64,000 bases of DNA from Patescibacteria group bacterium (GCA_028865725.1 JAGWJP010000001.1:143143-207142); one strand, 5' to 3'; shown: positions 47,251 through 62,357, counted from the stretch's first letter. Notes: a model not told the origin generated them from the letters alone. Translations and numbers: made by a program.

Positions 47251-48222
47251 ATGAGTCACATGGAAATGCCGCCCTTACAGGAATCAGGTTTGGAGACGAT
47301 GCGCCGCGCCGCGCAGGAGCTTATTGATCGTGCACACGAGGATATCAACGCATTATATCGACAAGACACTGACAAACCTCTCGAGCGAAGAGAGTATCAC
47401 AACATAGGACACACGAAAGGAGTAGAGAAAAACGCAGAACGTATTTTGCGTACGATCCAAGAAGCCGATTCTTCCCTTGGAGTTACTCCACGCGATGTTA
47501 TTCTCGCACGTCTTATTGCCGCATATCATGATATCGATCAGAGCCAGGATAAGCCGAATGAAGTCAAAGAAAATGTAGAAGGGGAAGAATTAACAAAATC
47601 TCTCCGCAAACGTTTTATCGCGACAATTGAAAAAAATAGCGCCGGAATTCTTCTTGGGCGCATGCAGCAGATGAATGAGGAACAAGGAGAATTATTTACC
47701 GAACATGATAAAGATATCGTGAAAGAAGCGATTCTTGCCACTGTTCCTGGGTTTGATCGAAGTCTGGGCACAGTGACTCAGCCCAACCTTCATGAAGATG
47801 CATCATTTATTACAAAGGCGGTCGCATTGGCAGATCTTGGCGCGATGATGGGGGGTGGTGAAGAGTTTTTGGAAGATGGCAACCGCGTATTTCGAGAGGA
47901 TAATATTGATATTGCAGAGGCTCTTGAACATCCAGAAATGATTGATGAGCGAAAAAAACGTTATTTTGCAACGCGCATACAAAACTGGTATCGCACGCAA
48001 GTCTCGTTTGTGGAAGGACGCCAGCAGATCTTTGAGATTCAGCTTCTTTCATTTCCTGAATCGGTTCGCGACAAGGTAAAAGAGCTTTTTAAGTTCGACG
48101 AGGCGATTGCTGCAGCAAGACAACGCATCGCAGATATTGAGAACGCCACGCAGGCAGGCCGCCCCTACTCATTTGAACAGATGATGGAATCGATGGGGTA
48201 TGCGCTTCCTTCAGCACACTAG
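47251..48222 (+). CDS. HD-motif protein, paralog A (323 aa), function unknown.
   Basis: YHNIGHTKGVEKNAERIL...LIAAYHDIDQ matches the H..H...HD pattern. The protein is colinear with the downstream paralog along its full length. Confidence 0.6.
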   Translation: MSHMEMPPLQESGLETMRRAAQELIDRAHEDINALYRQDTDKPLERREYHNIGHTKGVEKNAERILRTIQEADSSLGVTPRDVILARLIAAYHDIDQSQDKPNEVKENVEGEELTKSLRKRFIATIEKNSAGILLGRMQQMNEEQGELFTEHDKDIVKEAILATVPGFDRSLGTVTQPNLHEDASFITKAVALADLGAMMGGGEEFLEDGNRVFREDNIDIAEALEHPEMIDERKKRYFATRIQNWYRTQVSFVEGRQQIFEIQLLSFPESVRDKVKELFKFDEAIAAARQRIADIENATQAGRPYSFEQMMESMGYALPSAH

Positions 48223-48351: not shown

Positions 48352-49332
48352 ATGGCAGAATGTAGGCGGAGACGTCGTAACGTGATTGTCCCACCACCGC
48401 TTTCGTGGGTAGTAATGAAGAATTTAATCAGGAGAGCATATATCGACATTGAAAAAATGTATCCCGGTGAGGGGTGGGCTGGAAACGATCCTTTTGTAGA
48501 GCGCGCATACCACAACATTACGCATACGCACGGTGTTGTGTGGGCTACAGATAAGATCTTGGGAACGATGAGCAACGATCCAAGGAGTGAAATTAATGCA
48601 CGCGGTATTAATCTCGGGTGTCTTATTGCCGCATGTCATGATATCGATCAGCGGCAAGGTGCGCCTACCGCAAGCCATATCAGCTTAGGCGGTCAAATGT
48701 ATACGAAAGAGATGCGCCATCGTTTTGTGGGGCTCATCGAAGAGAATAGCGTTGAGATTTTGCTGGGTCGAATGTGTCAGGAAAACATGACTTATGGCAC
48801 CGAGCTTTTTACCGAAGAGGATATGCGGATTGCGAGAGAGGCAATTTTGGCCACCGTTCCCGGATTTGATCCGGAATTGGGTACCGTGATTCAGCCAAAC
48901 CTGAGTGAAGGCGCATCGTTCATCACGCACGCGCTCGCACTTGCAGATCTGCATGCTGCGATGATGCGCGGAGGGGCTGCTTTTTTGGCAGACGGAAACG
49001 CGGTGTTTCGCGAAGAGAATATTGACGTTGCGAGAACGCTCCTGCGTTCCCCCAATATTTCCCAGGCAGAGAAAGATTTTATCTGTGAGCGCATTATGGC
49101 GTGGTATAGAATGCAGATTCGGTTTGCTGAAGGGCGTAAAATTGTCGTTCAAAAGCAGCTTCTTTGGTTGCCGGAAACGATGCGAGATCCGGTCATGAAT
49201 CTTTTTAAGTTCGATAGGGCGATTGCTGCCGCAAGAAAGCGTGTGAAATCAATTGATGCTAAGGTTCAGGCGGGGTATCCTCCTTCGTTTGAAGAAATGG
49301 TATTGTCTATGGGATATACCGTCATACTTTAG
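48352..49332 (+). CDS. HD-motif protein, paralog B (326 aa), function unknown.
   Basis: YHNITHTHGVVWATDKIL...LIAACHDIDQ. It aligns with paralog A with many identical blocks (ATVPGFD, GTV.QPNL, ASFIT, ALADL, DGN.VFRE.NID, LFKFD.AIAAAR, AG.P.SFE.M..SMGY). Confidence 0.6.
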   Translation: MAECRRRRRNVIVPPPLSWVVMKNLIRRAYIDIEKMYPGEGWAGNDPFVERAYHNITHTHGVVWATDKILGTMSNDPRSEINARGINLGCLIAACHDIDQRQGAPTASHISLGGQMYTKEMRHRFVGLIEENSVEILLGRMCQENMTYGTELFTEEDMRIAREAILATVPGFDPELGTVIQPNLSEGASFITHALALADLHAAMMRGGAAFLADGNAVFREENIDVARTLLRSPNISQAEKDFICERIMAWYRMQIRFAEGRKIVVQKQLLWLPETMRDPVMNLFKFDRAIAAARKRVKSIDAKVQAGYPPSFEEMVLSMGYTVIL

Positions 49333-50328: not shown

Positions 50329-51450
50329 TTACTTCAACCCTAAGGCCTTTTCTCCCTGTTCAAAGAGATCGAGAAACTCCCTTGATAGAATGAGCGGTAT
50401 AAATTTTTGCTTATCGCCGTCTGATAATTTTGGGAGAGAATCAATATCCCACGCTTCAAAACCTATTGCCTTGCCGGTTTCTATTTTCAAATCTTTGATA
50501 TCACCATCGAATAAATAAACATATTGGGCCCTGAGAGTATTGTTGGTGAGACCGGTAGCTTCGTCGAAACTCTTTTTTGGCATTGTCTTTACCAATTTCA
50601 GTTTGGCCGGATCAAGAGTGATCCCGGTTTCTTCCAGAGCTTCTTTTAAAGCGGTTGCTTCATATGACATTCCCGGATCTACATGACCACCAACCGTTGC
50701 ATCGAGTTTATCAGGATAGGTATCTTTATCTTTTGCCCGGTGTTGGAAGATTAGCTTGCGATCTGGTGTCATAAACCAAATATGAATTTCTCTGTGAAGC
50801 AATCCTTCTTTGTGGATTTTCTTTCTGTTCTCCAGTCCGATTACTTCGTTCTTTTCATTTACCACCTCAAGCAATTCAATACCTGAAATCCTATCATGCG
50901 CAATCGCAATTAGTCTGTTGAACGGTCCAAAGCCATCATCCGAAGTGATGTGTCCGCCCTTCGGAATGGTTATAACCTCAGATCCGAGAAGCTTTTCAAA
51001 TTTTTCTTTAGTTTTCTCGTATGGCACCCAAGGATCATTATCTCCCAATAAGGTGACCAAGAAGCCCAAATTGCTTCTTACTTTTGCAGTATCGATGGGA
51101 GTCTCTGTCCAAGGTTTTGCGATTGCTTCTGCATCCGGCCCCTCAAGATTTTCAAGATCAAACCAGCCAGCGACAAATATTGCGCCACCAACTTTTATAT
51201 TAATAGTTTGTAGATAGCGCATTATAGTCTGACACCCAATACTATGCCCAATAAAGTATGTATCCTGATCCGGAGTGCCAACGATACGATCAAGAAAGGG
51301 CACCCAATCCTCGATGGTAGGATTTTCAGTATGTGGCAAATCTGGACAGACAACCTCGTAGCCAAGCTTCTTGAATTCTGTGGTTGTCCAAGGCATCCAA
51401 TCCCGATCCGATGCCCCATCCCAACCATGAACAATAATTATTTTTTTCAT
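50329..51450 (-). CDS. Fusion protein: an N-terminal alpha/beta-hydrolase (YdeN/RBBP9-like serine hydrolase) joined to a C-terminal Nudix hydrolase.
   Basis: The N-terminus IIIVHGWDGASDRDW...YFIGHSIGCQ is Ser-hydrolase-like. The Nudix box GGHVDPGMSYEATALKEALEETGI is present. Confidence 0.7.
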   Translation of the reverse strand: MKKIIIVHGWDGASDRDWMPWTTTEFKKLGYEVVCPDLPHTENPTIEDWVPFLDRIVGTPDQDTYFIGHSIGCQTIMRYLQTINIKVGGAIFVAGWFDLENLEGPDAEAIAKPWTETPIDTAKVRSNLGFLVTLLGDNDPWVPYEKTKEKFEKLLGSEVITIPKGGHITSDDGFGPFNRLIAIAHDRISGIELLEVVNEKNEVIGLENRKKIHKEGLLHREIHIWFMTPDRKLIFQHRAKDKDTYPDKLDATVGGHVDPGMSYEATALKEALEETGITLDPAKLKLVKTMPKKSFDEATGLTNNTLRAQYVYLFDGDIKDLKIETGKAIGFEAWDIDSLPKLSDGDKQKFIPLILSREFLDLFEQGEKALGLK

Positions 51451-51860
51451 AAATTTTCTTTGATTTTTTTATAAATTTCCATAAGCACATCTTCAGGAAT
51501 CTTGAAACTATGGTCAGTTTTATAATTATGACCCCACAATTTATCTTCAAAAGTGGTGTTCAGAAATTCCTTTGGTTTTGCATAGCGAGGAATAAAATGT
51601 CCATGCAAATGTCTGGTTTCATTGCCAAGAAAAGCATAATTAAACCAATCTGGCTGAAAAACTTTACTGATCGCATTTTTCAAGTCCGTAAGAACTGAAA
51701 ATAATTCCTGCTGTTCTTCTTGTGTGGCTTCGGTAAGATCAAGAGCATTTTCTCTTTTGCACCAAACCACACATCGTCCTAAATATCCCTGATTTTCGTG
51801 GATATATACAGACCAGTATCTATATTCTTTGATTAAAAATTTTGAGTAGTTATCTGACAT
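51447..51860 (-). CDS. HIT (histidine triad) family nucleotide hydrolase/transferase.
   Basis: HLHGHFIPR histidine triad. It overlaps the downstream gene by 4 nt. Confidence 0.65.
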   Translation of the reverse strand: MSDNYSKFLIKEYRYWSVYIHENQGYLGRCVVWCKRENALDLTEATQEEQQELFSVLTDLKNAISKVFQPDWFNYAFLGNETRHLHGHFIPRYAKPKEFLNTTFEDKLWGHNYKTDHSFKIPEDVLMEIYKKIKENL

Positions 51861-51861
51861 A

Positions 51862-52818
51862 TTAATATGCGGTTGTCCTTGTTAAATGATAGGGCTTGTC
51901 ATCGGGGTATTTCGTTTGAGTATATAGCCAAAGATGATCGTTTATGTCCATAGAAGTGATTCCATCAAACCTTTTTTGAACCTCTTGTTTTATAAACTCA
52001 ACCGCCCAGATCGTATTAGCCCTGATTTCAATTTCTTCCTCGCTGTCATGCGGAATGGGGGTTTTAGAATCGATTTTTTCGGCCAGTGAATCGACATAGG
52101 AGAGAATGCCGAATTTTCTAAGTGCTTGAGGCAATTTATAATCAGCACAAGCGGTGATTTCATTGGCATTTTTGAAATCGCCGGGTCCCTGATGTTTAAA
52201 TAACTGGTAGATATCGGCAATTAAAAGCTGGGCTCTTTTATAAAAATCTATCTCTTTTCCTTTATAAATACTTACGTCTCTAAAAGAAGGGAACGTTTCG
52301 ATAATGAACTCGAGTAAATGAACAGCGTCTTTATTTGCTTGCAAAATAAAATCAGAGAAATTGCCGTTGTTCTTTGCGATCAATGCTTTACCAGTCTCGA
52401 CCATAATGACATGTCGTTCATTAAGCAATGGAATCTCTGAATTACCTCGCAGGATCTCGGCGAGTTCCTGCCTGCTCATTTTAGATCGATAGTCGGCACT
52501 TAAAATATCTCGTCCTTCATCTATGGCTCGCTTGAGTGCAACAATCATTCCCCATGCACCGTCAAATTGCTGATCTTTATAAGTTATCGTCCATTTGGGG
52601 TTGCCCCAATAGCTGAAGCTAAGAGCGTTAAAAACAAATAGAAAGTTAAGTTTGTCATCATCGGATAATTCGGAAAAACCAAACGGGGCGGCTGAGAGCC
52701 AGTGCTGAACGTTGGTATGGTCAAAATTCTTTGCGAATTCCAAAACCTTGTCTTGGTTAATTCGGACAAATTGAGATTGATCGATTACCAACTTAGTTGT
52801 TTCTAAAACTTTATTCAT
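51862..52818 (-). CDS. Uncharacterised protein. It possibly belongs to the DUF2419/queuosine-salvage (QNG1-like) family, but that assignment is tentative.
   Basis: 318 aa with FNALSFSYWGNPKW. The family assignment rests on recollection only. Confidence 0.35.
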   Translation of the reverse strand: MNKVLETTKLVIDQSQFVRINQDKVLEFAKNFDHTNVQHWLSAAPFGFSELSDDDKLNFLFVFNALSFSYWGNPKWTITYKDQQFDGAWGMIVALKRAIDEGRDILSADYRSKMSRQELAEILRGNSEIPLLNERHVIMVETGKALIAKNNGNFSDFILQANKDAVHLLEFIIETFPSFRDVSIYKGKEIDFYKRAQLLIADIYQLFKHQGPGDFKNANEITACADYKLPQALRKFGILSYVDSLAEKIDSKTPIPHDSEEEIEIRANTIWAVEFIKQEVQKRFDGITSMDINDHLWLYTQTKYPDDKPYHLTRTTAY

Positions 52819-53138
52819 AGTGTTTCAATAGGATAAATATCGAAAGCAACCTCCTCGTAAGGATGAACCGCTTTCACTTTTTTAATTACTTCGTCCAAAA
52901 TGGATCGAGGAACGACTGCTTCGATCCGCTCTTCTTCGACCGATTCATAGTTTCCACTTTTACCGATAGCTGGGTGAGAATTTTCATTGCCACGATAACG
53001 TCCGATACCTCTGGATGAAAAAGAACAAAAATCATAATTGCCGACTTTACCAGCACCGGCTTCTCCAAGTGTCTGTCTTACAATATCAGCATGGGATAAT
53101 GGAACAAACACTACTAATTTCACATCTTCTGTTTTCAT
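52815..53138 (-). CDS. Small protein (107 aa) resembling the PII-like insert domain of NIF3/YqfO proteins.
   Basis: ...HPYEEVAFDIYPI C-terminal motif. It starts 12 nt after the stop of the PHP-ATPase and overlaps the next gene by 4 nt. Confidence 0.4.
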   Translation of the reverse strand: MKTEDVKLVVFVPLSHADIVRQTLGEAGAGKVGNYDFCSFSSRGIGRYRGNENSHPAIGKSGNYESVEEERIEAVVPRSILDEVIKKVKAVHPYEEVAFDIYPIETL

Positions 53139-53149
53139 TGTTTTATAAA

Positions 53150-56029
53150 TTAATCTGGAAAACTATATTTTTGTTCGCGTTTTTGAAATGCCTCTTTGCC
53201 ACCCTCGAGTATCTCGCAGACATGCTGTCTAATCCCTTTGCGATACAAGATTGCTGGTTCTTGCTCGGCATTGAACTCGAAAGTATTTTCAAGAGCACCT
53301 GACACATATTCAAATCTGTATTTTTTATTATCGCGCCCGATCTCTTGACCGGCTTGGTTCGCGACAATTGTCTCCTCCGAATCTGCACCGACTACAAGGT
53401 TTGGATTATGCGTAACAATAATGATTTGCCTCTGCAATTTTTTCTTTTTCAGAAAGTCTACAAGATCATCGTATACAGAACGGTTGTCGAGATCGTCTTC
53501 GGGCTGATCGAGAAGTATAGGCCATTCTTCATTGCTCAAATTTATGAGCAATTGAAGCAACACGAGGCCTTTCTTTCCGGGAGACATTTTATCAAGCGAA
53601 TCGTTTTTGTAGAAAATTCTAAAATCCAGGAAAAAATAATTATCTAGCAACTTTGTCGAGGCATCTTTTGCTTGGCGATTCTTGACTGTGTTAATAGTGC
53701 CACCAACTAATCCTTCGAATACCGTTGTGATATTAGCAAGGTGCTTTGCTGGGTCATATTTATAAATAAATTCGTCGCCCCACTCAGCTTCGACAATTAC
53801 ACGCTTCAGATCGTGTTTATTTATATATTCCTTGACCACGTCGGAATTAAAAATATCGTCATTAAAACTTACATGGACTCCGAGTGTGATATCTCCAAAT
53901 TTACTCTCAAATTTCTTGAATTCATTCCGCAGGTTTTCGTACTTAGCGACAATCTGCTTATAGGATTCAATGATGCTGTCGGTCTTCTTTTTATGAGACG
54001 CTTTTTTGGTCTTCAGATTATTTCTCTTTATTGCTATTTCGTTCAATTTTTGTTGCTCTTTCTTGATAGCGTCTGTTTTCTCTTGTAACTCTGATTGCAA
54101 TTGGATTTTCGCAAGTAATGGTGCAAGCTCTGCTTTTATCCTTGTCATTTCCGCATTATGAACTTTAAGCTTTGCATCTATCGTGGTGATAAGGTTGAGC
54201 GTGGCAGTTTTTAGCCCAGGTTCGAAAGAATCAATTACTTTTAATTCGCTCTTAAACTTCGTTTTTATGTCGGCGTCATTCAAATACTCTTCGCATTCGT
54301 CTGCGGTTGTTCGCAATGATTCGACTTGAGAAATCAGGCTAGTATTTAAATTCTTTATGGTCTTTTTATCCTCTTCGAGATTTGAAACCTGTGCATTGAT
54401 TTCCTTTTCCTTTGCCACTAATCCCTCATACTGTTTGAGCTGTTCATCGGTCAGACCCGATTTTGCCTTGATAGCATCTGCCTGATTTTGAAGCGTTTTA
54501 ATATAACTCTCTATACCTTTCTCATCCCCTGCCTGTTTCAACTCCTCCTCGGTCTTTCCGATATCGTTGCGATCCAAAAATAACTCATTGATTGCAGTTG
54601 GGATAGACTTAGCTTCAGCTTTTATTTCTCGAAGGGTCTCCTCATATTTTTCTTTTACCGCTGGATCTTGCAAGATCACGTTGAGTACGAACTCATTCAG
54701 GGCCTCACGGCTCTTAATATTGGCTTCCGAAAGTGTATTCAGGTAACGCTGTGGTATATAAAGGATTTTACGTTCTTTTGATTCTTCTTCCGCTGATCCC
54801 TCCGGAACCCGAAGCAGAGTGTGCTGGCCGTCTTTCCATGTGACTTCGAAATTGAAATCCACCGAGTTATCAAAATCGTATTTGACCGGAACCCCGCTGT
54901 CTGAAGTACGACTTTTAACTTCCTGCTGGTCGATCGTTTTGGCCATGTAATAAAGCAGGAGAGATTTACCCGTAGATTTTCCACCGATAATGGTGGTCAG
55001 GTTCTGATTCACTTCTATAGGATCACTTCCAAATTTTGCATCACTTGTATTATCCAAAAAACGGACTTTGTCTATGACGAAATATGACTTTTTCTCCTCC
55101 GGTTTCTGGGGTCCGACAAAAATGCGCTGATCAGATTCGAAGACTATCTGTTTAAGACCTTCGAACGTTGGATCGGCTTTAATCCAAAGGAAGTTACCGT
55201 CTTGATCAGCTTTACCAAGATCACGCAATGATCTGGCGTCCGAGCTTATATGAGAACAAAACTTTGAGGTAAGCGACGTGTTAGTTTTGATATAGTCAGA
55301 GACGGAAGCTGATGACTGTTGACGCTGAGACTGCAAAAGGTTCATCTTTTGATAATTAAAGATATCAGCCAAGTGTGTCCGATCAGTCGCCGTACGTTCT
55401 TGGAAAAGACCGTTACTGCTGTTGCAATGAGGATAAATTATAATCCCTCCGTTTCTTTTGACTTCGTCTATGATTTCCTTGATATCAGTGCTTGTGGTCG
55501 TGAGAACTCCTTGGCTGTTTGTCCGGTTATTGATATTGAATTTTGTTAGAAACGCTTGAATGCCGGCAGAAAATGTAGACTTTTGGTACAGCTTGTCCGA
55601 AAAGAATAACAACATGTGAATGCCTTGGCAGTTGATCTCTACACCAGGGATGATTTTACAACGAGACTCTTTTGAATACTCTATGAACGTATCGAGCAGG
55701 CAATCGTCAAAATAATTATGATCGGTTATGCCTATACAATCTAAGTCGGGATTGAAGGTATCGAGAAAAGCAAAATAATTCCTGATGTGATTCACGCACC
55801 TATCGTTTTTTGTAATTTGAGCATTATTAAAATAAACCTTCGAGTCGTAGAGCAAGGCATTTTCTTCGCCCCCAACCTTAGCGATGTACTGTTGCCAAGC
55901 TGTCGGGTTAGCCGACTTTAATTCCTCTGAATAGTTTGCGAGAGGGATATAGTTGTCGTCCAAAATGGTCTGTGTTTGCAGGTCCCACTTTCTCCATATC
56001 GAACCTTTTGGATAAGGAAAATTATTCAT
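53150..56029 (-). CDS. 959-aa fusion of an N-terminal PHP-family phosphoesterase, a long coiled coil and a split ABC/SMC-type ATPase. It is a candidate defence effector.
   Basis: PHP-like His/Asp motifs CIGITDHNYFDD, IIPGVEINCQGIHMLLFF and IIIYPHCNSSNG. Walker A TTIIGGKSTGKSLL. About 350 aa of heptad-like K/E-rich sequence. Signature-like MSPGKKGLVLLQLL. Walker B PILLDQPEDDLD. H-loop IIIVTHNP. Confidence 0.75.
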   Translation of the reverse strand: MNNFPYPKGSIWRKWDLQTQTILDDNYIPLANYSEELKSANPTAWQQYIAKVGGEENALLYDSKVYFNNAQITKNDRCVNHIRNYFAFLDTFNPDLDCIGITDHNYFDDCLLDTFIEYSKESRCKIIPGVEINCQGIHMLLFFSDKLYQKSTFSAGIQAFLTKFNINNRTNSQGVLTTTSTDIKEIIDEVKRNGGIIIYPHCNSSNGLFQERTATDRTHLADIFNYQKMNLLQSQRQQSSASVSDYIKTNTSLTSKFCSHISSDARSLRDLGKADQDGNFLWIKADPTFEGLKQIVFESDQRIFVGPQKPEEKKSYFVIDKVRFLDNTSDAKFGSDPIEVNQNLTTIIGGKSTGKSLLLYYMAKTIDQQEVKSRTSDSGVPVKYDFDNSVDFNFEVTWKDGQHTLLRVPEGSAEEESKERKILYIPQRYLNTLSEANIKSREALNEFVLNVILQDPAVKEKYEETLREIKAEAKSIPTAINELFLDRNDIGKTEEELKQAGDEKGIESYIKTLQNQADAIKAKSGLTDEQLKQYEGLVAKEKEINAQVSNLEEDKKTIKNLNTSLISQVESLRTTADECEEYLNDADIKTKFKSELKVIDSFEPGLKTATLNLITTIDAKLKVHNAEMTRIKAELAPLLAKIQLQSELQEKTDAIKKEQQKLNEIAIKRNNLKTKKASHKKKTDSIIESYKQIVAKYENLRNEFKKFESKFGDITLGVHVSFNDDIFNSDVVKEYINKHDLKRVIVEAEWGDEFIYKYDPAKHLANITTVFEGLVGGTINTVKNRQAKDASTKLLDNYFFLDFRIFYKNDSLDKMSPGKKGLVLLQLLINLSNEEWPILLDQPEDDLDNRSVYDDLVDFLKKKKLQRQIIIVTHNPNLVVGADSEETIVANQAGQEIGRDNKKYRFEYVSGALENTFEFNAEQEPAILYRKGIRQHVCEILEGGKEAFQKREQKYSFPD

Positions 56030-56034
56030 AAATA

Positions 56035-56832
56035 CTAAAGAATTACAGTCACTTTTTCATAAAGCATAGGCCAGCTATCCTGACGCATTCTAAATTTAGT
56101 ACCGTGGTTATGACCACTGCGAGCATCGAAGTCGACGAGAATCTTTGCTTCTTCAATAGCTTTCAAAAATCCTTCAAAGCTGAATTTTTGAAGCATCATA
56201 ACCTTATTGTATTTGTAATATTCCTTACCTCGGACAGTTTTGACCTCTGCCTGAACATAAAAACTATTCAAAAGTTTTGTACCGGCCTTATGTTCAAGAT
56301 CATCAAAACCCCAATATGGCTGTGGATTAAGTTCGCCAAGTCCTACTCGTTCCTTTACCACCTTAAGCCATTCGGCGTGTCGGATGTCCACGCTCTTCGC
56401 ATCAAATGATATTAAGACTTTCTTTTCGGTCCGATCGATTTTTACCATAAAACCACGATCGCTACGTGTAAGACCATGAATAGTCTGTCGAAAACTCATC
56501 TCACCTTTTGGATACTTCTTGCCATCTTCCTGATGCGCCCAACCATATTTCGGTAAAAGAACTTGTGGCACAAAACGAATAGCTCTGGGGGAGGGTTCAA
56601 TGTGAAATAAAGTACAAAGAGAAGTTGAATTCAATCGTTGGGCTTTTAATTCCCATTCGGCCGCATTTGGAATAGGTAGATTATTTTCTTTGATTCCGAG
56701 TAAGTCTTCGAGAGTATTCCCGATACCGCCGTGATTGCCCTTGCGAGCATTAGGAACCCACCCCATATTGGCAATCTCTTTTAATTTTTCAATAAGGGCC
56801 GGCTTTGTGTAAATTTTCGGTTTGTTTGGCAT
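56035..56832 (-). CDS. Putative Type II restriction endonuclease (by recollection, MvaI/BcnI-like).
   Basis: Immediately downstream of the MTase. Start moved from the listed TTG (56913, overlapping the MTase by 77 nt) to the ATG at 56830-56832 (MPNKPKIYTK), 4 nt after the MTase stop. The family call is tentative. Confidence 0.5.
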   Translation of the reverse strand: MPNKPKIYTKPALIEKLKEIANMGWVPNARKGNHGGIGNTLEDLLGIKENNLPIPNAAEWELKAQRLNSTSLCTLFHIEPSPRAIRFVPQVLLPKYGWAHQEDGKKYPKGEMSFRQTIHGLTRSDRGFMVKIDRTEKKVLISFDAKSVDIRHAEWLKVVKERVGLGELNPQPYWGFDDLEHKAGTKLLNSFYVQAEVKTVRGKEYYKYNKVMMLQKFSFEGFLKAIEEAKILVDFDARSGHNHGTKFRMRQDSWPMLYEKVTVIL

Positions 56833-56836
56833 ATCT

Positions 56837-57658
56837 TTATAAAAGTTTTTGTTGGGCTTTATGGTTTTTAATTCTCTTCTCGGCCATCTCGCAATACTCC
56901 GGCGAAAGATCAATACCGATATAATGCCGGTTAAAATTTATTGCAGAAAGTGCGGTAGTACCAGAACCCATAAATGGGTCCAGAATAATTTTCGCATTGG
57001 TAGACGACACAATACGATCTATAAGATTTACAGGGAAAGCGGCTGGATGTTCGTTATTCATCTCCTGTGTAAATTCCCATACGTCACCGTGGCCACTTGC
57101 CTTAGGTGATAATTTAAATTTAGGTTTGGCGATAAGATAGATCACTTCGTATGTCGGCACAAAGTAACCGGGGTTAAAATTGAAACCGCCCTTTCTTCTC
57201 CAAATTATTATCTGGCGCACAGGAAAGCCACTTACAATATCCTGCCGATCCTGCAAAACACCTCCTTGTACGCGCCATTTATGATTGTAGAAAATCGCAC
57301 CATCTTCAGGAATAATCCTCATCATCTCCGCCAAGCATTCACGTTGCCATTTCACATACTCATCATGAGGCATACAGTCGTTATGGTGGGAGTAACCTTT
57401 TTGAAGTGCGGCATTTGCCCATTTACCACCACGGCCATCTTTCATGCCATTACCTGTAGAATTTTTAAGATTATAGGGTGGCGAAGTCACTATTAAATCA
57501 ACCGAGCCATCAGGTATTTTTTTCATGATATCAACTGCATTACCGCAGATGATTTTATTTAAAAAGTGATTAGGATATTCTAACTTCATAACCTTAGATT
57601 TAATGGGGCTCGTCTTTATTTTTACTTGAGTTTCCATATTATTTTGAATGCTTTTCAT
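56837..57658 (-). CDS. Beta-class DNA amino-methyltransferase (N4-cytosine or N6-adenine).
   Basis: Motif IV DLIVTSPPY precedes motif I FMGSGTT, which is the beta-class order. Confidence 0.85.
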   Translation of the reverse strand: MKSIQNNMETQVKIKTSPIKSKVMKLEYPNHFLNKIICGNAVDIMKKIPDGSVDLIVTSPPYNLKNSTGNGMKDGRGGKWANAALQKGYSHHNDCMPHDEYVKWQRECLAEMMRIIPEDGAIFYNHKWRVQGGVLQDRQDIVSGFPVRQIIIWRRKGGFNFNPGYFVPTYEVIYLIAKPKFKLSPKASGHGDVWEFTQEMNNEHPAAFPVNLIDRIVSSTNAKIILDPFMGSGTTALSAINFNRHYIGIDLSPEYCEMAEKRIKNHKAQQKLL

Positions 57659-57842
57659 TTTTCTTTTTTACGTTACTCGTCTCCTCAAGAAAGGTGTTGA
57701 GGTCTGATTGTTTGATCCGCCAAACCCCCAACTTAGACGCTTTTAATCTACCGGACTCGATATATCGGGTTACGGTGCGAGTATGTACTCGTAATATTTC
57801 GGCAATTTCCTCAATGGTAAAAAGTTTTTCGATTTCGTTCAT
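57639..57842 (-). CDS. Small HTH DNA-binding protein (excisionase/MerR-type HTH). It may be the R-M controller.
   Basis: FTIEEIAEILRVHTRTVTRYIESGRLKASKLG..WRI. It overlaps the MTase start by 20 nt. Confidence 0.65.
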   Translation of the reverse strand: MNEIEKLFTIEEIAEILRVHTRTVTRYIESGRLKASKLGVWRIKQSDLNTFLEETSNVKKKNEKHSK

Positions 57843-58003
57843 AAAAATAAATTAAGTCGTTGGTATCATTTTACCGCTTTCAGATTTCGTTGTCAAAATT
57901 GCCGGTTTTTGTCATAATGTACTTATGAGCTAATCTGATAAAGTTTAGTGAATGGGAGACATAAAATAGGTCCGATTCACTAAAATTTGATTAATCGGCT
58001 TGA

Positions 58004-60761: not shown

Positions 60762-62357
60762 ATGATGAAAGGAATTATTTACACAAGAGTATCAAGCGAT
60801 GAACAGGTCAAAGGTACCTCGCTGGAACACCAAGAGGAACTTTGCCGGAAATACTGCAAAGACAAAGGCATCGAAGTCGATGTGGTTTTCCGTGAGGAAG
60901 GAGAAAGTGCAAAAGACCTGAGCTTGCAGAATCGCAAAAGGTTTCTGGAAGCTCTTGAGTTCTGTCGCAAGAACAAAGACAAGGTCCAGGCCTTTGTGGT
61001 TTTGCGCGTGGATAGATTTGCCCGTAATGCCGATGACCATTTTGCTATTAGAAAAATCCTAGCGACGTATGGCACAACACTGCATTCAGTCACCGAACCG
61101 ATCGGAAATGAGCCGGTAGCTAAGCTTTTGGAAACATTCCTTGCCGGTATTGCTGAATTTGATAACGCCATCAGAAAACAAAGATGCAGTGATGGAATGC
61201 TTGCCAGAATCAACCAAGGTATCTATCCATGGAAACCGCCGATCGGTTATAAATGCGTTAACTTCAAAAAGCACGGCGAGAAAAAGACCCACGCCGATCC
61301 GCCCCACGAGCAGATATTCCCGATTATCCAAAGAGGACTGAAAGAATTCGCTCAGGGTCTGCACTCGCAAAGCGAGCTGATGAGAAAACTGGACGAATGG
61401 GGTCTTAAGGATTTGACCGGAAAGAAAAGCACGCCCCAGCTTGTAAGCCGATTAGTGACCAACTACCTAAAGTTTTATGCCGGCATAATTACCAATCCGT
61501 GGACAGGCAAAGATGTTGAGGGCCAGCATATTCCGATGATTACCAAAGACGAGATGTATCAAATCAAAATGATCCTGACCGGTAAAAAGAGATTGGTGGC
61601 TAAATACAACATCTTCAATCCAGACTTTCCGCTTAGACGAACCGTAACCTGCGCTGTTTGCGGACGACCGCTGACCGGAAGCGCGCCTCGAGGCGGAATG
61701 GGAGGACGATATAACTATTACCACTGCGGAAATAAGAACTGCCGGGTATTTGGTAAAAGCACACCCAAGCTGGAATTGGAAAAGATGTTTTTTGAATATT
61801 TAGAGAGAGTTACTCCCAAACAAGCGTTCCTCGATATTTTCAAGGAAAGCGTGATTGATATTTGGAAAGAAAAAGGCCAGAGGTTTGAAATGGAAGCCGA
61901 GAAGTGGAAAAAGAAGCTGGAAACGCTTGAGGCAAAGAAAAAACGCATCTACGAAATGCGAGAGGACGGTTCATATACCAAAGAGGAGTTTGTGGAACGG
62001 AAAGATGAAATTGAGAACGAGATATCAACCACCAGAATATTATCCAACGAAGCCCGAATCGAGCAGTTCGATATTGAAGGATCAGTCATTTATGCGACCA
62101 AGTTCATAAGCAACCTCGGCCGACAATGGTTCGACCTTGTGCCACACTTACAGCCCAAGTTCCAGAAACTAGTCTTCCCAGAAGGAATACCGTTTGAATG
62201 GAAAAAAGGATTTGGAACTGCCAAATTAGCAGTCATTTACGAGATGAATCGGGAATTCTCGACTGAAAATTCCGCTTTGGTGGACCTAGCGAGAATCGAA
62301 CTCGCGTCTCTACAATGCGAATGTAGCGTCTTGCCACTGGACCATAGGCCCAAATGA
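60762..62357 (+). CDS. Large serine recombinase (phage-integrase type).
   Basis: The resolvase catalytic domain IIYTRVSSDEQ carries the catalytic Ser. A recombinase domain and zinc ribbon CAVCGRPLTGS...YYHCGNKNC follow. The last 25 codons are antisense to tRNA-Ala. Confidence 0.85.
   Translation: MMKGIIYTRVSSDEQVKGTSLEHQEELCRKYCKDKGIEVDVVFREEGESAKDLSLQNRKRFLEALEFCRKNKDKVQAFVVLRVDRFARNADDHFAIRKILATYGTTLHSVTEPIGNEPVAKLLETFLAGIAEFDNAIRKQRCSDGMLARINQGIYPWKPPIGYKCVNFKKHGEKKTHADPPHEQIFPIIQRGLKEFAQGLHSQSELMRKLDEWGLKDLTGKKSTPQLVSRLVTNYLKFYAGIITNPWTGKDVEGQHIPMITKDEMYQIKMILTGKKRLVAKYNIFNPDFPLRRTVTCAVCGRPLTGSAPRGGMGGRYNYYHCGNKNCRVFGKSTPKLELEKMFFEYLERVTPKQAFLDIFKESVIDIWKEKGQRFEMEAEKWKKKLETLEAKKKRIYEMREDGSYTKEEFVERKDEIENEISTTRILSNEARIEQFDIEGSVIYATKFISNLGRQWFDLVPHLQPKFQKLVFPEGIPFEWKKGFGTAKLAVIYEMNREFSTENSALVDLARIELASLQCECSVLPLDHRPK
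62278..62351 (-). tRNA. tRNA-Ala (CGC) with G3:U70 and encoded CCA.
   Basis: On the minus strand: gggccta/taggtcc acceptor with the G3-U70 wobble, which is the Ala identity element; anticodon arm ctaca-uuCGCau-tgtag; T-arm gcgag-ttcgatt-ctcgc; discriminator A; CCA. Confidence 0.8.

Follow-up and report, generated by a model that had tools for sequence, protein, structure and literature searches.

PII, CutA1, SbtB and CPII proteins function as trimers, with nucleotides or other small ligands bound between the subunits, and the regulation of ATP-dependent partners is a classic role of PII-type proteins. A PII-like domain is also found as an insert in NIF3 proteins, where the insert of YqfO trimerises to form the 'lids' of a hexameric NIF3 cage, while the NIF3 core itself (COG0327) carries a dinuclear metal site of five His, one Glu and one Asp. 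The insert of S. aureus SA1388 forms trimeric lids, and its authors left ligand binding open (PMC1779786). The domain has been described on its own as well: stand-alone COG3323 or 'YqfO-like' forms (DUF34 subgroups D and E) are defined by an HPYE motif and, according to Reed et al. 2021, 'certainly perform a different function' from the NIF3 core, although a COG0327 core is nearly always present in the genomes that carry them; a NUDIX fusion of the YqfO-like domain has also been reported (PMC8469502). One stand-alone example, the 103-aa YqfO03 of Pseudomonas syringae, has been expressed (PMC6321441).

Here we analysed a 64-kb window (the whole stretch of 64,000 nucleotides under study) from a Patescibacteria group bacterium, in which a small gene lies directly downstream of a gene for a TrlF-family PHP-ATPase. 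We know of no accessory subunit in the Ppl/TrlF family, and none emerged from the present analysis. Ppl itself has been described as a single-gene anti-phage system (PMC11482910). A first-pass annotation had likened the small protein to the PII/CutA-like insert of NIF3/YqfO and suggested that it might act on the ATPase as a sensor or regulatory subunit; the fold assignment stands, whereas the proposed role is not supported.

Organisation of the locus

The small gene is read on the minus strand (53138→52815; no strand had been given in the first-pass annotation), and its product, MKTEDVKLVV...HPYEEVAFDIYPIETL, has the C-terminus ...VHPYEEVAFDIYPIETL, ending in HPYEEVAFDIY. The upstream TrlF ORF stops at a TAA (53152-53150) and the ATG of the small gene begins 12 nt past the last base of this stop, leaving a spacer (TTTATAAAACA) that is, judged from its sequence, too short for a promoter or terminator; no terminator-like site was found on the minus strand in this gap. 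At the other end, the TGA of the small gene (52817-52815) overlaps the ATG of Q_salvage (52818-52816) in a 4-nt ATGA, which reads 'tcat' on the plus strand at 52815-52818. The length of the ORF, the distance of its start from the ATPase stop, the 4-nt overlap and the terminal residues had all been described beforehand and were confirmed from the sequence. Translational coupling to the ATPase had also been proposed from the tight spacing. Across 46 homologous loci, however, the junctions of the small gene usually measure -4 to +5 nt with whichever gene adjoins, unrelated neighbours included, so that tight spacing is the norm for this gene in these compact genomes and uninformative on coupling.

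Table 1. Features around the small gene, with positions in the 64-kb window
Feature	Position	Strand	Basis
Ser_hydrolase (YdeN-like) + NUDIX fusion, 373 aa, 4-nt overlap with HIT	50329..51450	-	PF06821 3e-24, PF00293 5e-11
HIT-family nucleotide hydrolase/transferase, 137 aa, 1 nt after Q_salvage stop	51447..51860	-	PF01230 E 1e-6
Q_salvage (Qng1/DUF2419-like), 318 aa, first gene of downstream array	51862..52818	-	PF10343 E 7e-79
Small gene, stand-alone YqfO-like (COG3323) PII-fold protein, 107 aa, ATG start	52815..53138	-	ORF, 2gx8 match, homologs, model
Spacer, TrlF stop to small-gene ATG, 11 nt	53139..53149	-	Sequence
TrlF-family PHP + ABC/SMC-type ATPase, 959 aa, Ppl-related	53150..56029	-	NCBIfam NF045780, PADLOC Ppl
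MvaI/BcnI-family type II restriction endonuclease, 265 aa (L123 gene call)	56035..56832	-	PF15515 E 8e-67, PADLOC REase_II
N4/N6 DNA methyltransferase, endonuclease partner, 250 aa (L123 gene call)	56837..57589	-	PF01555 E 7e-40, PADLOC MTase_II 6e-123
HTH_17 (mad1-like) DNA-binding protein, 67 aa, island head	57639..57842	-	PADLOC mad1 1.9e-9, Pfam HTH_17 in L123
Best sigma-70-like promoter match in region, TTGACA-17-TAAAAT, 11/12	57868..57896	-	Consensus match only

The TrlF ORF matches the NF045780 profile with E 3e-147 and 492.9 bits (cutoff 350) over profile positions 34-943 of 944, and because the family profile is matched end to end, no domain is missing from it. Its similarity to Ppl is weaker (PADLOC Ppl 3e-18); the match to the TrlF model, a Ppl-like C-terminus and a restriction-modification setting are shared with the single-gene defence proteins of the Ppl/TrlF family. 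As assigned by their profile matches, the HTH, methylase, MvaI/BcnI and TrlF genes form an anti-phage defence island beside the small gene. The stretch 50329-57842 (7.5 kb) is identical to a second sequence (L123, GCA_028868355.1 contig JAGWUQ010000002.1), from which the gene calls for the endonuclease and methyltransferase were taken; the longest ORFs of these two genes extend to 56913 and 57658, respectively.

From the best promoter match, transcription could extend over all the co-directional genes 57842→50329. Promoter and terminator scans returned no more matches than in shuffled sequence, and at this level the scans cannot decide on a promoter of the small gene's own inside the 3' end of TrlF.

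Sequence and predicted fold of the small protein

Searched against the PDB with phmmer, the small protein matched residues 161-261 of B. cereus YqfO (2gx8_A, E 1.5e-31) and residues 137-234 of S. aureus SA1388 (2nyd/3lnl, E 6e-11), regions that in both structures are the PII-like insert domain. It had no above-threshold match in Pfam or NCBIfam. The score against the Pfam P-II family (PF00543) was 14.6 bits (E 0.041), below the cutoff of 25 and outside canonical PII; CutA1 (PF03091) gave no match even at E<=10; and the NIF3 core (PF01784) gave no match, the small protein corresponding to the insert alone. Its architecture is accordingly domain-only, a 107-aa ORF bounded by stops and without the N- and C-halves of NIF3.

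Identity to the NIF3-embedded inserts is 44-56%, and 16 residues are invariant across 24 stand-alone and NIF3-embedded sequences, among them G30, G33, Y35, C38, G44, G46, P56, G59, E69, E73 and H92-P-Y-E95. The last of these (H92-P93-Y94-E95) is the HPYE signature (IPR015867, as defined in PMC8469502). The protein also has a glycine-rich stretch, G28-A-G-K-V-G33-N-Y35, and a conserved loop (residues ~38-65) at the position of the T-loop.

An AlphaFold model, built from a shallow 25-sequence alignment of database proteins only, had a b-a-b-b-b-a-b topology at moderate confidence (mean pLDDT 67), with low confidence over the loop at residues ~38-65 (pLDDT <50). Foldseek searches with this model placed 2GX8 on top (3e-8), followed by PII, CPII, a DUF3240 protein, CutA1 and SbtB (1e-5 to 3e-4). 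Together with the 2gx8 sequence match, these structural matches bear out the likeness to the insert of NIF3/YqfO that the first-pass annotation had noted. With GlnB/GlnK, CutA1, SbtB and CPII the small protein shares the ferredoxin-like (b-a-b)2 fold and a long loop at the T-loop position, but the structural alignments with PII/CutA1-type proteins show only 12-19% identity (12-16% for CutA1), a resemblance at the superfamily level.

By sequence, the small protein is a stand-alone member of the YqfO-like family (COG3323, DUF34 subgroup D). It has every feature of COG3323 that we tested, whereas by the tests applied it does not qualify as a canonical PII or CutA1 protein, as a NIF3 core or as an accessory subunit of TrlF. 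With the insert of YqfO (BC_4286, 2GX8) and SA1388 (2NYD/3LNL) it shares full-length homology, the invariant residues including HPYE, and the fold; it differs in being free rather than inserted between the halves of the NIF3 dinuclear-metal domain, with no core nearby. With stand-alone COG3323 proteins such as YqfO03 it shares a length of ~100 aa, the domain-only architecture and HPYE, and it differs from them in belonging to a patescibacterial branch, 70-85% identical within itself, that is set among small-hydrolase arrays. The stand-alone family having been described already, the patescibacterial gene is an ordinary further member of it.

Homologs and conservation

A search of 5.8 billion proteins returned 1469 homologs of the small protein at E<=1e-3. 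The best 120 of the 1469 are all 104-128 aa long and 73-100% identical, and the named sources among these 120 are Patescibacteria MAGs (Paceibacterota, Moranbacteria, Liptonbacteria, Wildermuthbacteria). Among 1.84 billion cluster representatives, a profile search matched 3249 proteins at E<=1e-3, of which 2003 passed E<=1e-10; the matches fall into two size classes of ~105-175 aa and ~360-390 aa. Species-representative genomes were scanned, yielding 80 loci, of which 46 distinct stand-alone loci from different species were used. In all loci of the patescibacterial type the match is a free ORF of 105-115 aa, whereas in Bacillota, Bacteroidota and others the domain is embedded in a NIF3 protein of 364-390 aa. 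Neither half of the NIF3 core was found anywhere in the 64-kb window, nor in the ±10 kb that flank the stand-alone genes.

Aligned at the DNA level, the window and two related loci (L110 and L111) are conserved exactly over the small ORF, with unrelated flanks, and the differences between the three copies of the gene lie largely at third codon positions, as expected under purifying selection. The number of homologs and the confinement of DNA conservation to the ORF indicate that the small gene is real and not a chance ORF.

Neighbouring enzymes and domain fusions

In the window the small gene stands first in a series of overlapping genes with Q_salvage, HIT and Ser-hydrolase-NUDIX, and these downstream enzymes recur in part at other loci. 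In L014 the small gene is closely followed by a copy of the HIT gene (66% identical), and an ortholog of the Ser-hydrolase-NUDIX fusion (80% identical) lies two genes downstream in L111. Other loci have arrays of a similar kind, with an S51 peptidase, HD, Ham1, a metallophosphatase and NUDIX in L113, and with an AAA_18/33 kinase directly downstream followed by Ser_hydrolase, NUDIX and HD in L117. Among 174 genes at positions ±1-2 of the small gene we counted NUDIX 5, GNAT 5, Ser_hydrolase 4, His_Phos_1 4, GDSL 3, SDR 3, HIT 2 and RidA 2, besides others. Among 148 control genes more than 6.5 kb away at the same loci, each of these enzyme families was found fewer than 2 times among the top families listed, where ribosomal proteins and similar core genes came first. 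No neighbour family occurs in more than ~10% of loci, indicating that the partner enzyme is not fixed. A TGT gene, sought as a link to Q_salvage, was absent from the window; at least 3 other loci have TGT no more than 10 kb from the small gene, a frequency not clearly above chance.

Cluster representatives also included fusions of the domain to GNAT (P0141) and to a thymidylate-kinase/AAA_18 domain (P0190). Most other apparent fusions in this search, of 240-310 aa, proved to be truncated NIF3 proteins with no new architecture.

These fusions bear on the possibility that the free domain is a detached lid that caps in trans a NIF3/YbgI-type core hexamer encoded at another place in the genome, much as the insert of YqfO does in cis. 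The identity to embedded inserts and the shared invariant residues would fit such a role, as would the reported presence of a COG0327 core in nearly every genome that has a stand-alone COG3323 form; against it stand the missing core within ±10 kb of the stand-alone genes and in the window, the conclusion of Reed et al. that stand-alone forms have a different function (PMC8469502), and the GNAT and kinase fusions, which show its use with other enzymes. We consider a detached lid unlikely, and favour a stand-alone module that serves the downstream enzymes.

The variable 5' edge

Upstream of the small gene, the neighbours change from locus to locus. AbiLi (PADLOC 1e-75) and AbiLii lie directly upstream in L004 and an IS3 transposase does so in L019, while a DpnII restriction-modification cassette lies ~2 kb upstream in L001 and an integrase with a SLFN-type ATPase ~4 kb upstream in L113. 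Of 54 distinct contexts (the 46 loci, seven further contexts and the window), three have TrlF as the adjoining upstream gene, namely the window, L110 and L111, in which the small proteins of L110 and of L111/L112 are 85% and 81% identical to that of the window, respectively. The TrlF proteins of L110 and L111 (929 aa, NF045780 E ~1e-147) are of a second subtype, ~28% identical to the window TrlF over local segments only, and in L111 this second subtype follows a different methylase cassette. The 80% identity of its Ser-hydrolase-NUDIX protein marks L111 as related to the window organism. The three TrlF-bearing contexts belong to one lineage; together with a TrlF remnant downstream of the small gene in L019, they are more than random placement would give, an excess that is explained only by inferring a hotspot. 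These arrangements suggest a variable site at the 5' edge of the small gene, at which defence cassettes are exchanged.

Two related readings go further. One takes the 5' edge as a recurrent defence landing site in Patescibacteria (MvaI restriction-modification with TrlF1, methylase with TrlF2, AbiL, IS3); the other, which is stronger, takes the small protein as a PII-like host factor that is exploited or monitored by ABC/OLD-type defence ATPases (TrlF1, TrlF2, AbiLi). A host factor of this kind would explain why three different ATPases of the same class abut the small gene, yet we think these readings improbable, and prefer to regard TrlF as cargo of a defence island inserted beside the gene.

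Association with TrlF

The regulatory role proposed in the first-pass annotation, which would make the small protein a translationally coupled, PII-like sensor or regulator of the PHP-ATPase and, with that ATPase being TrlF, place it in phage defence, was examined in both directions. In the forward direction, tblastn with the window TrlF and the second subtype detected no TrlF gene up to 10 kb away from the small gene at any of the 46 stand-alone loci. One of these, L019, has a match to a 35-aa remnant of a TrlF C-terminus (63% identical) 1.7 kb downstream of the small gene. A Pfam scan of the 174 genes at positions ±1-2 found no ATPase families.

In the reverse direction we used 21 metagenome loci whose TrlF is 71-85% identical to that of the window. 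The small gene, Q_salvage, HIT and MvaI were all absent within 5 kb in 21/21 of these loci, where the neighbours were instead ResIII (5), N6_N4_Mtase (4), PDDEXK(_1) (3), DNA_methylase/HinP1I, Methylase_S, AbiEii and others. On enterobacterial plasmids (689 records), both TrlF genes that were inspected stand by themselves, surrounded by toxin-antitoxin, Abi and IS genes. A 107-aa ORF two genes downstream of the TrlF of L102, with a 963-aa ORF between them, was considered as a second instance of the pair and rejected; it is an unrelated YgjP-like HExxH metallopeptidase fragment. None of the PADLOC families matched the 107-aa protein of the window.

The adjacency is thus not conserved from either side, which the first-pass annotation had itself named as a ground for rejecting its proposal, with the window, L110 and L111 as the exception. 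Several observations would still suit a sensor of TrlF. First, the two genes are separated by only 11 nt with no terminator between them. Second, TrlF is directly upstream in three genomes and as two subtypes that are only ~28% identical, so the juxtaposition must have survived or recurred after gene replacement. Third, the pair of TrlF2 and small gene is common to L110 and L111, which differ downstream. Fourth, the AbiLi ATPase upstream in L004 is of the same AAA_15/21 class. Lastly, ATP-dependent partners are, as a matter of general knowledge, what PII-type proteins typically regulate. Weighing against these are the absence of TrlF from 46/46 species-level loci and 51/54 contexts, the absence of the small gene near 21 of 21 close TrlF homologs, and the lack of a PADLOC match. 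The small gene also forms equally tight junctions with unrelated neighbours everywhere, and its protein is conserved at 70-85% as compared with 28% between the TrlF subtypes. Furthermore, plasmid TrlF is solitary and Ppl functions as a single gene (PMC11482910). We therefore regard a sensor role, even one confined to this lineage, as very unlikely; it would have pointed to a novel PHP-ATPase defence system of two components, one of them a PII-type sensor, which the comparisons between genomes do not bear out.

The least plausible reading is that the small gene is itself a horizontally moving accessory gene, which would explain its 70-85% identity between distant patescibacterial classes and its lack of synteny and would suit the unrelated flanks even among the closest homologs and the defence or mobile genes that are frequent within 5 kb upstream (restriction-modification in L001, AbiL in L004, IS3 in L019, integrase and SLFN-type ATPase in L113), but it is absent from 21/21 TrlF-bearing islands, differs between copies largely at third codon positions, often neighbours core genes (PheS/PheT, ThrRS, RRF, SecA) and has an embedded counterpart that is similarly conserved between phyla, so that the high identity reflects constraint.

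Discussion

In our view the locus is probably best explained by a stand-alone YqfO-like PII module, a putative ligand-binding trimer for the downstream enzymes, that came to lie next to TrlF through a defence insertion; on this explanation TrlF is cargo of the defence island and no partner of the small gene. Most likely the small protein is a ligand-binding trimer that serves the salvage operon downstream of it, a role that we derive from its relatives. By analogy with the PII superfamily and the SA1388 trimer, it would form a homotrimer whose intersubunit clefts may hold a small ligand, most likely a metabolite of the nucleotide type. The conserved flexible loop at the T-loop position would then pass the ligand signal to a partner enzyme and tune it. 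The most plausible partners in the window are the overlapped downstream Q_salvage together with HIT and Ser-hydrolase-NUDIX, which would have salvage or house-cleaning roles. Mobile defence genes that inserted at the 5' edge of the array would have brought TrlF next to it.

For the Patescibacteria, the analysis gives a clean annotation to a widespread 'hypothetical protein' as a stand-alone YqfO-like/COG3323 protein with a PII fold, and offers its 5' edge as a candidate insertion point for defence islands in reduced genomes. For the wider family, the NUDIX, HIT, Ser-hydrolase, GNAT and kinase neighbours and fusions point to a role alongside enzymes acting on small molecules or nucleotides, which bears on the function of the NIF3/YqfO insert.

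Genomic neighborhood of the YqfO-like gene

The gene encoding the 107-aa stand-alone YqfO-like protein (the small gene) lies between a compact defense island and a run of salvage genes (table). All four island genes point the same way as the small gene and the downstream salvage genes, into which they read, and the region's top-scoring promoter-like site is found immediately upstream of the island genes on the minus strand. On the downstream side, the Q_salvage, HIT and Ser-hydrolase-NUDIX genes form a translationally overlapped run; the Q_salvage gene, here in a patescibacterial genome, is of the Qng1/DUF2419 type. The 64-kb window lacks a TGT gene, and elsewhere the distance between TGT and the small gene is 10 kb or less in at least three loci (L006, plus two control genes, the latter distal genes from small-gene loci).

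Features of the window and of homologous loci from other genomes (L-numbers; coordinates are those of each locus)
Feature	Locus	Coordinates	Strand	Content or position
Two tandem paralogs, ~325 aa each	window	47251-48222; 48352-49332	plus	
Salvage genes	window	50329-52818	minus	Qng1/DUF2419-type Q_salvage, HIT protein, Ser-hydrolase-NUDIX fusion
Compact defense island	window	53150-57896	minus	HTH_17/mad1-like gene, N4/N6 methylase, MvaI/BcnI endonuclease, TrlF-family PHP-ATPase
531-aa ORF	window	60762-62357	plus	
tRNA-Ala(CGC) gene	window	62278-62351	minus	
AbiLi/AbiLii abortive-infection pair	L004	4230-5986		directly upstream (14 nt) of small-gene homolog
IS3-type transposase (OrfA/OrfB)	L019	4564-5846		directly upstream of small-gene homolog
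TrlF C-terminus remnant (…GIGQHVCDVLESSEEAFQKREQKYNL*)	L019	7970-8074		intergenic, 1.7 kb downstream of small-gene homolog
Second TrlF subtype, 929 aa	L110	219-3008		upstream of small gene, position as window TrlF
Second TrlF subtype, 929 aa	L111	3222-6011		upstream of small gene, position as window TrlF

Defense genes also accompany homologs of the small gene elsewhere. The 929-aa TrlF subtype matches the full family profile, yet is only ~28% identical to the TrlF of the window. At L111, the genes before it encode a 542-aa methylase and two unannotated proteins of 360 and 337 aa, the last two with no match in PADLOC or NCBIfam. In a Moranbacteria genome (L019), the TrlF remnant and the IS3-type transposase both indicate that mobile and defense DNA turns over around the small gene. 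The organism carrying the AbiLi/AbiLii pair is abundant, with the same protein on 76 contigs.

A weak HD-domain match was detected in one of the two tandem paralogs, and at L117 a 318-aa HD protein is the last member of the Ser_hydrolase-NUDIX array that follows the small gene. Elsewhere in the window, the 3' end of the 531-aa ORF is overlapped by the opposite-strand tRNA gene; its annotated end, or the whole ORF, may be unreliable.

Groups, hosts and fusions of YqfO-like proteins

Based on stand-alone homologs at L028-L034, L037-L043, L050-L061 and L070-L087, patescibacterial stand-alone proteins form two groups, one with 67-85% identity to the query and the C-terminal end …YPIE(T/N)L, the other with 45-63% identity and, commonly, a C-terminus that ends in an acidic tail (…EE(D/E)L). 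Since Saccharibacteria-labelled genomes are present in both, the two groups may be paralogs. The patescibacterial-type gene (57-79% identity) was also found in MAGs titled 'uncultured Gammaproteobacteria' or 'Bdellovibrionales' at several loci (e.g. L013, L017, L018, L023, L025, L033, L041), titles that are probably taxonomic mislabels. Lastly, in the database proteins P0141 and P0190 an N-terminal YqfO-like domain is followed by a GNAT acetyltransferase or thymidylate-kinase/AAA_18 domain, fusions that are possible clues to the function of the YqfO-like domain.
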